A stretch of 64,000 nucleotides of DNA, from the NCBI GenBank assembly GCA_013239625.1, contig MU053513.1, forward strand, positions 2,406,927 to 2,470,926, in the 5' to 3' direction. The stretch's first letter is position 1. Every line of letters starts with the position of its first letter. The position numbers and the translations under genes were made by a program. Shown piece after piece: positions 1 to 21,267 of this stretch. This DNA comes from Lama guanicoe (lineage: Eukaryota). The notes beneath the pieces are model-generated. The model was not told where the DNA came from, did no database searches, and saw nothing but the letters and a program-made list of their open reading frames with translations.

Positions 1-1288
1 AGGCAAGAATATATAATGGAGAAAAGACAGTCTATTCAGCAAGTGGTGTTGAGAGAACTGGACGGCCACATGTTTATCAGTGAAGTTAGAACATTTCCCA
101 CACACAAAAATAAACTCAAAATGGCTTAAAGTGTTAAACATAAGACAAGACACCATAAACCTCCTAGAAGAGAACATAGGCAAAATATTCTTTGACATAA
201 ATCGTAGCAATGTTCTCCTAGGGCAGTCTCCCAGGACAATAGAAATAAAAGTGAAAATAAACAAATGGAACCTAATTAAACTTATAAGCTTTTGCATAGC
301 AAAGGAAACTGGCAACAAAACAAAAAGACAACCTATGGACTGGGAGAAAATATTTGCAAACAATGTGACCAACAAGGGCTTAATTTCCAAAATACACAAA
401 CAGCTCATACAACTCAGTAACAAAAAACCAAACAACCCAATCAAATAGTGAGCAGAAGACCTAAATAGACATTTCTCCAAAGAAGATATCCAGATGGCCA
501 ATAGCCACATGAAAAGATGCTCAACATTGCTAATTATCAGAGAAAAGCAAATCGAAACTACAATGAGGTGCCACTTCACACCAGTGAGAATGGCCATCAT
601 TAAAAAGTCTATAAATAAATGCTAGAGAAGATGTGGAGAAAAGGGAACCCTCCTACACTGTGGTGGGAATGTAAATTGGTGCAGCCAGTATTGAAAACTC
701 TATGGAGCTTCCTTAAAAAACTGAAAATACAGTTACTATATGATCCTGCAGTCTCACTCCTGGGCATACATCAAGAGAAAACTCTAATTTGAGAAGATGC
801 ATGCACCTCAGTGTTCATAGCAGCACTATTTACAAAAGCCAAGACAAGGAAGCAACCTAAATGTCCATTGACAGATGACTGGATAAAGAAGTTGTACAAT
901 GGAATACTACTCAGCTATAAAAAAGAACAAAAAAACACCATTTGCAGCAACATGGATGGACCTGGAGATTGTCATACTAAATGAAGTAAGTCAGACAGAG
1001 AAAGACAAATATCATATGATATCACTTATAATGTGGACTCTAAAATATGATACAAATGAACTTATTTACAAAACAGAAACAGACTCACAGACATAGAAAA
1101 CAAGCTTATAGTTACCAAAGGAGAAAGGTGGGTGGTGGGAAGGGGCAAATTAGGAGTCTGGTATTTGCAGATACAAAATACTGTATAGAGAAAAGCTAAA
1201 CAGCAAGAACCTACTGTACAGCATGGGGAACTATATTCAGTATCTGTGATAACCTATAATGGAAAATAAAAAATAAAAAACAAATAAA
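1..1288 (+). mobile_element. Relatively young LINE-1, 3' part (disrupted ORF2 C-terminus, 3' UTR, A-rich tail); 5' end outside window
   Basis: ORFs 80-448 ([13 protein letters not shown]...WEKIFAN) and 899-1096 (MEYYSAIKKN...FAATWMDLE) are typical L1 ORF2 C-terminal peptides broken by stops/frameshifts; G-rich 3' UTR tract ~1126-1146; A-rich end ~1263-1288. Confidence 0.95.
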
Positions 1289-11668: not shown

Positions 11669-11744
11669 CTTTCTTTTTTCAACTGAAGTATAGATGGTTT
11701 ACAATGTTGTGTTAATTTCTGGGGTACAGCATAGTGATTCAGTT

Positions 11745-11803
<59 letters not shown>

Positions 11804-12396
11804 TCAGATATATATATATATATATATTCCTTTTCATAGTTTTTCTCATTATAGGCTAGTACAAGACATTGAACATAGTTCCCTGGGCTATACAGTAGGA
11901 CTTTGCTGTTTATCTAGTTTATATATAGTAGTTAGTATCTCCAAATCCTGAACTCCCAATTTATCCCTCACTAACCCCTTTCCCCTCTGGTAACCATAAG
12001 TCTGTTTTGTATGTCTGTGACTCTGTTTCTGTTTTATAAATAAGTTCATTTGTGTCATTTTTTTTAAGATTCCACATATAAGTGATATACATGTGGTATT
12101 TTTCTTTCTCTTTCTGGCTTACTTTACTTTAATGACGATCTCTAGGCCCATCCATGTTGCTGCACATGGCATTATTTTATTCTTTTTTATGGCTGACTAG
12201 TATTCCACTGTATTTATATGCCACATCTTCTTTATCCAATCATCTGTCAATAGACATTTGGGCTGCTTCCATGTCTTGGCTATTGTAAATAGTACTGCTG
12301 TGAACATTAGGGTGCATGTATCTTTTCGAATTAGAGTTTCCTCTGGATATATGCCCAGGAGTGGGACTGCTGGATCATATGGTAAGTCTATTTTCA
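11669..12396 (-). mobile_element. Young 5'-truncated L1 3' end, inserted in a MIR
   Basis: Reverse complement resembles the L1 at 1-1288 (~730-1260); flanking repeat GGTTATCT at 11661-11668 and 12397-12404; MIR-like sequence continues ~12405-12515. Confidence 0.92.
11745..11826. repeat. Compound (TA)n(CA)n(TA)n microsatellite in L1 3' UTR
   Basis: Directly visible dinucleotide runs. Confidence 0.97.
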
Positions 12397-13649
12397 GGTT
12401 ATCTGTTATTCTGCCTCTGTGATGTTAGAAAAATGGGAATAATAATCGTACTCTTACAGGGTTGTTGTAAGAAACAAAGCTGCAAATTACTTAAAATAGT
12501 TCCTGCATCACAGCATTGTGAATGTTTTAGCTGTTTATCTGTCTTGAATCTTGGGCCTGGGTTAGGTACGTGGCTTCACCCATTAGTCTCAAACTATGGT
12601 GGATGCAGAAGTGATTTTAACAGAGTTTCATTCTGAAATTTTGGAATTATCATGCTCAGGGTTTCAAGGTATGAGGGAAAGAATTCTGCTAACTGCAAAA
12701 CTATTGATACAATTTTAGTTTCCTTTTGAAGTTTTTGTAATTTTCTACAATAAGGCAGTGCTAATTTGATATCAGAAAAAAGGAAAGATCTAACCATGTC
12801 CCTCTTACACTTCATCTTCCCATTGAAAAAATGGAGGTGGTGGGGAGGAAAGATTATTCCTTTTGTTTTAAAGAATAATAGCATCAGTTAAGAAGCAGAA
12901 GTGCTCAATTGCCCCACAGCCCGGTCCTAGCCTCGCCCAGGCAGCTGACCCTGGGGCTGGCTGCTCAGCAGGTCAGGAGATCCTCAGTGGAGAATCAGTG
13001 AAAAATTAAAAAAAAACTCAGATTGACTTTAGTGAATTAGTCTGATGAAAATACACAAGCTCAAGCAGGAAAGCAAAAGGATATCAACAAGTTTGGATGT
13101 TTATTTAATGTGAATTGCTGGACTTCATTATAGAAAAAACATTGATTGACAATCACTAACTTCCAAACAAAACCCGATGTGTATACAGTTGAAAATAAAA
13201 TCGATAAAAACTTCAGCAGTCATCTCACTGTCCCAGGTTTCAGAATGCTAGAGCCCTAAGTTTTTTTTTTAAATAATTTATTCCATTTTTAAAAGGGCAC
13301 AGTGAATAGAGAGTATGGTTGAAAAATGTTATTAAAATATAAATATGTGTAGCCTCTGACCTAATGACTACCATAGTGATTGCTGAATTTATCTGTGTCT
13401 CTATGTAAACAAATTAAACAAATGTTGGCTTGACAGGCATGATGGTCACAAATTCTTAGACTTAAGAATCTTAAGAGGGCCCTTAAAGTATATCCAATCC
13501 AGCTCTCTATGCAAAGTGGGCATTACAATATGCAGCACAAGTGATGGTAGTCAGGCTCTCAGATGCCGTCTCCAGACCTCTCTCTGCCTGTGCCACCCTG
13601 GTATTAAAAAATCTGTAATAAAAAAACAGCAAACGCTGTCTGTTTGAAT

Positions 13650-17585: not shown

Positions 17586-18471
17586 AAGTTGTGACTGGAG
17601 GAAGAAGGACGAGGTCATTTGTGAGAAACAAGTGGAAATGGCTGCAAGCTCTCTGGAAGCGACAATTTCCACTCAGTGTTGTTGTCACTTTGGGCAGAAA
17701 CAAGAGCATTATTCTTCATGGAACTTACGATGGCTTAAATTAGCCCCTTAGAAGGGCAGCTCTTCAGATTGCTATGTGACTGCGATAAATCTAGTGCAAA
17801 CCGGCGGTTGTGGATTTTGAGTCAAGTTCTGCCTTGACTTGGGTTGGGAAGAGGTATTCCAGATGTTTGTGGTGGTGGAGGGTGAGAGGAGACATCTCCC
17901 TAACCCACTGTCCCACATTTCCAGAAGCCCTTGGATGGCCGCCTCAATTTCAGATCTCTTTTGGGAGTCCAGGTTGCTCTGATTCAGACTAGGAAAGACA
18001 AAGGTCCAAAAGAAAAGGAATGAAGTTAGACCCTGAAGGGAGCTCTGACAACACCAAGTCCAGAGTCTGCCAAGGTCCAGATGCACTGCTGTGCTGAGAG
18101 AAGGGCTGCACCACGTCTGCTCTGTGCACCCGAGCACCCTCTCCCAGCACAGTGCCCGGCACACACTGAGCCTAGCAGACGTCCCACAGACCGAAAGAGG
18201 AAAGGCACAAGTGTGTGAATGGGAGAAGGTGTTTCTCCAGATGCTTGCAATCACTGGTATCAGGAGCAGAGACTTCCCCAGGTATGCTACAGAGTAATTT
18301 GAGGGGTGCAGCTTAATGAGTTTGCCTGCCATAAATGAACTTCCCAATTCTACGAGGACATCGGCTTATCATGTGACAGATGCACGATAATGGATAGTAA
18401 AGAAAAAATGGACGTTAAGTTAAGTCAATAATAGAAATAGTTAAAAACAATGTAAGAAATACTGCATGCTA

Positions 18472-18722
18472 GGAGGGGCTTCAAGTTGGTGGAGCAGGAG
18501 GACACGGAGCTCACCCTCTCCCACAAACACATCAAAAATACATCTACACGTGGGACAGTTCTCACAGAATACCTACTGAACTTTGACAGAAGATCTTGTA
18601 CAGCGGGAACTACAAGGAAAATCTTCACGAAACCAGATAAACAGCAAGGTCCTACTGTATAGCACAGGGAACTATATTCAATATCTTGTAATGGCCTATA
18701 ATAAAAAAGAATATGAAAGAAA

Positions 18723-18771
<49 letters not shown>

Positions 18772-18836
18772 ACTGAATCACTATGCTGCACACCAGAAAT
18801 TAACACATTATAAACTGACTATAATTCAATAAAAAA
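18472..18836 (+). mobile_element. Bipartite L1-derived element: L1 5' terminus (~165 bp) fused to L1 3' terminus (~200 bp), with A-tail and 18-bp TSD
   Basis: TSD AAGAAATACTGCATGCTA (18454-18471) / AAGAAATATCGCATGCTA (18837-18854); 5' half resembles a laurasiatherian L1 5' UTR start ('ttcaagttggtggag...cccacaaacacatcaaaaatacatctaca'); 3' half matches in-window L1 3' UTRs. Confidence 0.85.
18723..18771. repeat. (TA)n(CA)n microsatellite in L1 3' UTR
   Basis: Directly visible; same L1 position as 11745-11826. Confidence 0.97.
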
Positions 18837-19172
18837 AAGAAATATCGCATGCTAAAGTGGCTGGCTCTGAAGTCTGAATTGTTCTTATACTGCAGGTTAG
18901 AAGAAATAGGCTAATCTGGGGGGCGTTCCTCCCCCACATACACATGAAGAGGGGAAAGCAGGAAGCACGTGCGAGAAAACAAGCGGACAAGCAGCGCGTC
19001 TGTGAAGAGTCTGTAAACGCTTCCCCCAGAGCCTCAGTGTCCAGCCTCCCCATCCCTCCCGCTCACTCAGCTCTCCACCCACATCACTAGCGGTCTCAGA
19101 ACTGACATAGCGCCCCCACCGGGGCCCGTCCAACACCTCTCACCCAGGGAGTCCTGCACTTCAGTGGGCAAG

Positions 19173-19590
19173 TGTATTACTAGTTTCCTGAAGCTGCTGT
19201 AATAAATTACCAAAAAGTATGTGGCTTAAAACAAGAGAAATTCATTCTCTCACAGCTCGGGCGGCTAGAAGCCTGAAATCAAGTTGTCATGGGAGCTCTA
19301 AGAGGGAGTCAGTCTTCGCTTCTTCCAGCTGCCGGTGGCTCAGGCGCTCTTGGCTCGTGGCTGTCTCAATCCAGCCTCTGCCTCCATCTTCACATGGTCT
19401 CCTGTTCTCTGTGTCTGTCTTCTCCTCCTCTGCCACTTGTAAGGACACTTGTCATTGGATTTTGGGCTCACCCATGTAATCTCTTAACTTAATGACATCT
19501 GTAGTGACTCATTCTAAAAGGTCACATTCACAGGTCCCAGGGTTAGGAAGTAAACAGATCTTTTGGGGAATCACCATTCAACCCAGCACA
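19173..19590 (-). mobile_element. MaLR solo LTR (MLT1C-like) with 5-bp TSD GCAAG
   Basis: TG...CA ends; GCAAG at 19168-19172 and 19591-19595; 'gtggcttaaaacaagagaaattcattctctcacag', 'aaggacacttgtcattggatt'. Confidence 0.93.
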
Positions 19591-20242: not shown

Positions 20243-21267
20243 CTGATATCTGGTCACTCCAGCCACATCTTCTGTATCCTGTCTCTACCTGCTATTTAAA
20301 TAGAGCTGTGTCCAATAATGACAATTTTTATTTAACATTCACAATAAAAATGCTCATTTTTGAGGATCCAAACTAAAGTTTTCAGTGAATCTCTACAAGC
20401 CCGACTAAGCCACAGCCATCCAGTGAAATCCGCAGACCTAAGACTGTTGTGTTTGTGTCTTATTTTCACTGTGAACTCAAAAAGACAGGTGGCAGAAAGG
20501 CGAGGGGCCAGAGAAGGCAGAATGGGTGCACTCCAACGCTTGTCACTCAGCTTGGCGTGAACAGGATCGGTGTCTGCAGCCTGCCACTGTGGTGGGGCCG
20601 TTGCTGATCATCGTTGTCATCGAATGTAAGAGGAGGTACTTAGAAGAGAGGGAGTGGGGGGTACAGCAGACCTTTTCCAGCTGGCGCAGGAGACCAGATT
20701 TTAGGACCACTCACTATGTGACTTGGGCAAGTTATTTTACTTCTGCGGATCTCAAATTTCATCATCCCGAGGGAGCCAGACGACATTGCGTCTAAGGTCC
20801 CTTCCATTTCATACATGCTTGAAACAGCCTTTCATAAAAAAGCACACTAACGCGTGTGTGGATGAAATAACATGTATTAATTATTTGATATGTACAAGCA
20901 CCACACTTGTGCTCCATTATGTCAGTCTTATTTACTTACGAAGCCTTCAAGCCTAATAATCTTAACAACGCTAACAACAACTGGTGTTTATTGAACTCTG
21001 GTTTCATGACAGGTTGTATACTAATGGGAGTGACTTTATCTGAACTCGGAAGTCCTTCCTCTCTGACATCTGATCACCAGAGCCACATCTTCTGTCTCTT
21101 GTCTCCAATTGCTACTTAAACTAGAGCTGTGCCCAGTAATAATAATTTTATTGAATTTAATTTAATGGAATACTCATCATTAAAATGCTAATTCTGTTAA
21201 ATGCTTCAAATACAAGTTTTTAGTGAATCTCTTTAAGCATATAACTAAGCTACAGCAATCCAATGAA
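20243..21267 (+). repeat. Diverged direct duplication: copy 1 ~20243-20427, copy 2 ~21063-21267
   Basis: Collinear exact blocks AGCCACATCTTCTGT (20261/21081), TAGAGCTGTG (20301/21122), AGTGAATCTCT (20384/21222). Confidence 0.9.
20690..20810 (+). mobile_element. MIR/MIR3 fragment
   Basis: 'ccactcactatgtgacttgggcaagttattttacttct...tctaaggtcccttcca'. Confidence 0.7.

Follow-up and report, generated by a model that had tools for sequence, protein, structure and literature searches.

A 365-bp ORF-less L1 copy in guanaco DNA, probably derived from an L1 RNA spliced between its 5' and 3' UTRs

Within the 64-kb window, by which we mean the whole stretch of guanaco DNA analysed here, we observed a 365-bp unit (18472-18836) between direct repeats, which consists of L1 nucleotides of about 1-165 (the start of the 5'UTR) joined to the end of an L1 3'UTR (200 bases), and from which ORF1 and ORF2 are both absent. 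The first-pass annotation of this DNA had already described such a bipartite, ORF-less element mobilised in trans, and had offered an amplified family, a template jump or a later deletion to account for it. Its anatomy and its mobilisation in trans are supported by the present analysis, but the likeliest cause of the junction, GT-AG splicing of an L1 RNA, had been missed; the mini-L1 is better explained by splicing than by any of the earlier options, and template jump and later deletion are less likely. We consider splicing the likely origin of the junction. With less assurance, yet in preference to the other readings, we regard the mini-L1 as a retrocopy similar to the spliced integrated retrotransposed elements (SpIREs) of human L1 (Larson et al. 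2018, PMC5860796), in which splicing would have linked about nt 165 of an L1 RNA to its 3'UTR, and the resulting ORF-less RNA, which many parent L1s could yield as a by-product, would have been retrotransposed in trans.

The ends of the mini-L1 are those of an ordinary TPRT insertion, with a target-site duplication (TSD), an A tail and an endonuclease site. The 5' copy of the TSD (18454-18471, +) and the 3' copy (18837-18854, +) are identical at 16/18 positions, as first annotated, and they are the sole 18-mers in the 64-kb window to reach at least 15/18 on either strand, so that a chance repeat was rejected. At the presumed L1 endonuclease nick beside the 5' copy the bottom strand reads TTTCTT/AC, which is close to TTTT/A and TTTC/A, the L1 endonuclease sites named previously (PMC5860796). 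The unit ends, again in agreement with the first annotation, in AATAAA (18828-18833) and a short residual A tail (18828-18838 together, +), with an 8-A run at 18831-18838 of which the final two bases fall in the TSD.

A 66-codon sense frame over the 5' part had no match in Pfam, a blank that carries little weight because the same Pfam run missed 3/3 L1 ORF2-type fragments, two of which were recognised in a PDB search (the 67-aa query being 4 residues longer). A different frame, stop-free over 58 codons (18486-18662, +), begins at a TTG standing in place of the opening motif's ATG and spans the junction; the same upstream frame in the homologous 5' ends described below, those of three metagenome contigs and of pig L1B, meets a TAA within about five codons, and this TAA is absent in the mini-L1. 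The frame could be open by chance, or it could be a translated uORF that brings the mini RNA to the ribosomes making ORF2p. Two other identities were considered for the element and rejected: a structured RNA (z -1.59, with 6/100 shuffles equally stable) and a tRNA-, 7SL- or 5S-derived SINE (no Rfam, ARAGORN or B-box match in the window).

The 5' part of the unit (18472-18636, +, the putative exon 1) is, judging from its alignments, about nt 1-165 of an L1 5'UTR, an identity that the first annotation had proposed and that now stands on homologues. A motif from this part was found at 3 loci in metagenome contigs (L001-L003, 1.1-1.25 kb), all of them unspliced 5'UTRs ending before ORF1. The left flanks of these contigs are unrelated, and they are followed by a common sequence which begins in register with 18472 and continues as a GC-rich (58-63%) tract, with a 5'UTR of over 900 nt. 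The 5' part matched their 5' ends at 78-79% over 115-126 nt (E 2e-20 to 8e-26): 93/122, 97/125 and 99/125 positions are identical over 18472-18596, similarity falls to 9/20 over 18597-18617, 10-12/19 positions match in register over 18618-18636 (shuffle p 0.0004-0.007), and beyond 18636 the match is 4-5/15. At 18482-18489 (+) the mini-L1 carries a degenerate AAGATGG motif, with one A-to-T change relative to the openings of L001-L003 and pig L1B, where we take this motif to be a YY1 site. As for the contigs themselves, L001:80-1219, L002:69-1092 and L003:37-1251 are mammalian L1 5'UTRs with flanks, that is, host DNA in a metagenome assembly, and L002 is without about 140 bp that are present in L001 and L003 near their positions 780-950.

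Because L001-L003 stop before ORF1, the L1 identity of the 5' part was cross-checked on the pig L1B consensus library (supplementary file 1 of PMC6501411). By eye, the pig L1B consensus sequences in the accessible part of that file open with the same sequence as the 5' part; 18506-18538 is an exact 33-nt match to the L1B8 consensus, and 18617-18636 matches L1B1 (Repbase L1B-SS) at 14/20 positions.

The 3' part (18637-18836, +, the putative exon 2) aligns, as had been claimed, to the L1 3'UTRs at 1194-1286(+) and 11920-11670(-) of the window. Against the 11.7-kb copy (11913-11670(-)), 72/82 and 56/64 positions are identical on either side of a microsatellite (88%), which is a (TA)n(CA)n tract grown within the 3'UTR at 18723-18771 (+), at the same position as the (TA)/(TG) run of that copy. 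This sister copy served as our comparator: at 11670-12400 (-) it is a 5'-truncated, unspliced L1 with the C-terminus of ORF2p and a 3'UTR, and its frame at 12400-12200(-) matches human ORF2p residues 1163-1230 (E 1.4e-25).

The junction is placeable only to between 18629 and 18636, and the 7-nt stretch 18630-18636 (+) is assignable to either half, with matches of 6/7 to the 3'UTR copy, 3/7 to L001-L003 and, by eye, 4/7 to pig L1B1. Split alignments of the mini-L1 to L001-L003 and the comparator put the best break between 18629 and 18630 in 3/3 comparisons, 7 nt before the putative splice position between 18636 and 18637, which is more than 4 score units off this optimum; the optimum placement keeps the AG and implies no splice. 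In the last four bases, the differences of the homologues from the mini-L1 are, by eye, the pattern expected from opposite-strand CpG decay, and we infer that a 5'UTR origin accounts for them about equally well. Because the homologues are distant and the last-four-base differences fit the decay of one CpG, we prefer to describe 18630-18636 as microhomology whose 3' edge coincides with the splice position. A short AG-ending homology at the junction is predicted by the splice consensus, and a template jump predicts it too.

On the donor side, in gapless register with 18637, L001 and L002 read TGG/GTAGGG and L003 reads TGG/GCAGGG (the slash marks the splice position), and GT makes up about 2% of positions in the homologous 5' ends. 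In the pig library, the 10 motif matches listed out of 11 are L1B 5' ends with GG/GTAG at the same register. The splice donor consensus is MAG/GTRAGT. Measured against it, the donor in the distant homologues is weak (4-5/9 consensus matches) and is surpassed by another GT in their 5'UTRs, and the mini-L1's own exon end, CAG, lifts the match from 5/9 to 7/9.

On the acceptor side (11914-11937, -), the comparator reads TACTAAC (11937-11931), the optimal U2 branch point, then 17 nt ending in TAG, and then the base homologous to 18637; the branch A lies 19 nt upstream of the junction AG (11915-11914), which is the first AG after the heptamer. This TACTAAC is the only perfect one in 730 nt of comparator L1, and among the 53 AGs of the same 730 nt, 3 have a branch point of at least 6/7 at -18 to -40, all via this heptamer, and the AG of the junction comes first among these three. 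TACTAAC occurs 4 times in 128 kb, which gives about 0.0007 for a 23-position window, these motif statistics being post hoc. The comparator acceptor has nearly no polypyrimidine tract, and the motifs that point to the splice come from this one sister copy on the acceptor side and from distant homologues on the donor side. The acceptor seems to have arisen in the younger L1s of this lineage, because it is absent from pig L1B, whose 3'UTRs read TGG/ATAAGC without AG or heptamer here (8/9 matches in the part of the library consulted), and from the older L1 at 1194, which has neither heptamer nor AG at the acceptor place. We also observed that the comparator, an ordinary truncated L1, has a perfect branch point and AG at 11937-11914(-) followed by a poly(A) signal; each copy of its L1 subfamily would be a potential terminal-exon trap for same-strand host genes.

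We infer the following course of events for the mini-L1. A full-length L1 would have been transcribed from its own 5' promoter, as the intact 5' terminus suggests. The spliceosome would then have linked a donor near L1 nt 165 with an acceptor some 200-240 nt before the 3' end, and what left the RNA as one intron would be, as the motifs in homologues indicate, most of the 5'UTR together with ORF1 and ORF2. The polyadenylated RNA of about 350 nt would have been copied, like a processed pseudogene, by ORF1p/ORF2p supplied in trans from other L1s, because the mini RNA codes for neither protein. Since donor and acceptor belong to the sequence of the parent family, different full-length L1s would be expected to make the same product repeatedly and so to give rise to same-junction copies, none of which need be active; if such copies are splice products, they would be SpIRE-like by-products and not necessarily a self-propagating SINE.

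In human L1 the donor is used rarely and trans-complemented SpIREs are rare (PMC5860796), which counts against the splicing of an L1 RNA followed by copying in trans. Splicing could also have made only the founder of a self-propagating non-autonomous family, whose mini-L1 masters keep enough of the internal Pol II promoter and are mobilised in trans. The retained 5' terminus and poly(A) signal would suit such a family, and ORF-less bipartite families do exist for RTE, Ingi, Vingi and R2 (PMC5786205), but the mini-L1 has lost the greater part of the GC-rich 5'UTR, which exceeds 900 nt in L001-L003, the opening AAGATGG motif is mutated in this copy, and human SpIREs lose promoter activity (PMC5860796); we hold this family to be unlikely. 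The same doubt attaches to the idea that the gain of a branch point and an AG in the 3'UTR made the coding region an intron and thereby founded a Pol II 'SINE' of L1 ends that multiplies from its own masters. If true, it would give the L1 clade its first family of ORF-less bipartite elements, splice-born, in genomes poor in young tRNA SINEs, and the same splice would act as an inherent brake by turning L1 RNA into a non-coding competitor for ORF1p/ORF2p.

A one-off template jump, in which a nascent cDNA of about 200 nt anneals to the 5' end of an L1 RNA (the same or another) via 6-9 nt of microhomology and synthesis then proceeds to that end, seems improbable to us. The 7-nt ambiguity with its 6/7 match to the 3'UTR, an alignment optimum that precedes the splice position by 7 nt, and the single copy in everything searched (the 64-kb window and microbial collections) speak for it. 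But it leaves unexplained why the break coincides with a conserved GT on one side and, on the other, with the AG that comes first after the sole perfect branch point; and since the two mismatches to pig in the last four bases, like the mini-L1's own state there, are by eye what opposite-strand decay of one CpG would produce, a 5'UTR origin would suit these bases about equally well. A full-length L1 that inserted and later lost about 6-7 kb by microhomology-mediated DNA deletion would look alike in its TSD, 5' terminus and tail, and microhomology is present at the junction; we nevertheless consider this history very improbable, as the coincidence with splice signals would go unexplained and a recurrent junction would be impossible.

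In the 64-kb window, the 5' part and the junction each occur once. The exact junction pattern had 0 matches in metagenome contigs, the 5'-end motif and the 3'UTR motif each had 0 in viral and genome contigs, and there was no mini-L1 match in plasmids or phages, all of these collections being microbial and uninformative on copy number. The divergence of the mini-L1 is about 6%, as estimated from the two TSD differences and the 88% identity to the sister copy. At a neutral rate near 2e-9 per year the insertion would have, as a rough figure, an age of some 25-30 million years, and the copy is an old fossil, probably without function. On this rough figure the insertion is also older than the Camelini/Lamini split at 16.3 Mya (PMC6726744).

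Self-BLAST of the 64 kb revealed no short repeat family, and there was no tRNA, Rfam or B-box match; such a lack of young SINEs would be uncommon in most mammals and agrees with camelids, whose SINEs are put at about 1.6%, nearly all MIR (PMC8605555). Elsewhere in the window, 20243-20427 and 21063-21267 are 71% identical and form a local duplication of 200 bp, which has no relation to the L1 fragments. Just downstream of the mini-L1 lies a stretch (19170-19500) that we take, from its appearance, to be an MLT1-type LTR.

Among known systems, SpIREs fall into intra-5'UTR or 5'UTR/ORF1 classes (97/622, 97/790, 97/853, 97/976), account for 131/6,609 full-length human L1s (roughly 2%) and have been judged dead ends, and L1 sequence changes create new classes of them (PMC5860796). 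Like the mini-L1, they keep the L1 5' terminus and carry TPRT hallmarks, and in them an internal part is missing at donor and acceptor motifs, as is probably the case in the mini-L1; unlike the mini-L1, which is without both ORFs, they retain ORF2 and are mobilised in cis or with ORF1p alone supplied in trans. With its acceptor in the 3'UTR and its 365-bp unit, the mini-L1 belongs to none of the classes described in the available text of that paper. SpORF2 and other spliced human L1 RNAs run from a 5'UTR donor to a distant L1 acceptor (97/1837, 290/1920; Belancio et al. 2010, PMC2896524); SpORF2 and its kin keep ORF2, with no 3'UTR acceptor shown in the sections of that paper at hand, and Belancio et al. 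2006 may list further sites. Other L1 splice products and chimeras are on record, none of them ORF-less of this kind in the excerpts available (PMC2896524, PMC5753468, bioRxiv 10.1101/2025.02.02.635956).

The mini-L1 also resembles the ORF-less bipartite LINEs, namely RTE-N, RTESINE, Bov-A, Vingi derivatives, RIME and R2 derivatives (Kojima 2018, PMC5786205), which retain nothing of the parent LINE but its 5' and 3' ends, have no ORF, and are presumably transcribed by Pol II and mobilised in trans. In the available portion of that paper, such elements are reported only for RTE, Ingi, Vingi and R2 and are ascribed to internal deletion, whereas the mini-L1 has an L1 parent, outside the reported clades, and was probably spliced. 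HAL1 (half-L1), an L1 derivative retaining ORF1 (PMC5786205, PMC5753468), is likewise non-autonomous and has L1 5' and 3' ends; it was rejected as an identity for the mini-L1, as HAL1 encodes ORF1p and is kilobases long (HAL1_SSc is 3016 bp, supplement of PMC6501411), and the mini-L1 is 365 bp with no ORF1. Processed pseudogenes, too, arise when a Pol II RNA that has been spliced and polyadenylated is copied in trans, with a TSD, but the mini-L1 descends from an RNA of L1 itself and includes the beginning of the internal promoter. In the titles and abstract openings of the literature matches listed, an ORF-less 5'UTR/3'UTR L1 from camelids or any other group is undescribed; a Dfam or Repbase entry for such a unit may exist.

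Annotation would usually split copies of the mini-L1 type into two unrelated L1 fragments, and an ORF-less spliced class of L1 would surprise specialists, more so if it were abundant. A germline-fixed 5'UTR-to-3'UTR splice product would show that a few base changes in the 3'UTR can turn the whole L1 coding region into an intron, and if the product exists in many copies, such ORF-less RNA would be mobilised efficiently in trans. The mini-L1 is in this respect a natural test of L1 cis-preference and of the birth of a SINE-like element.
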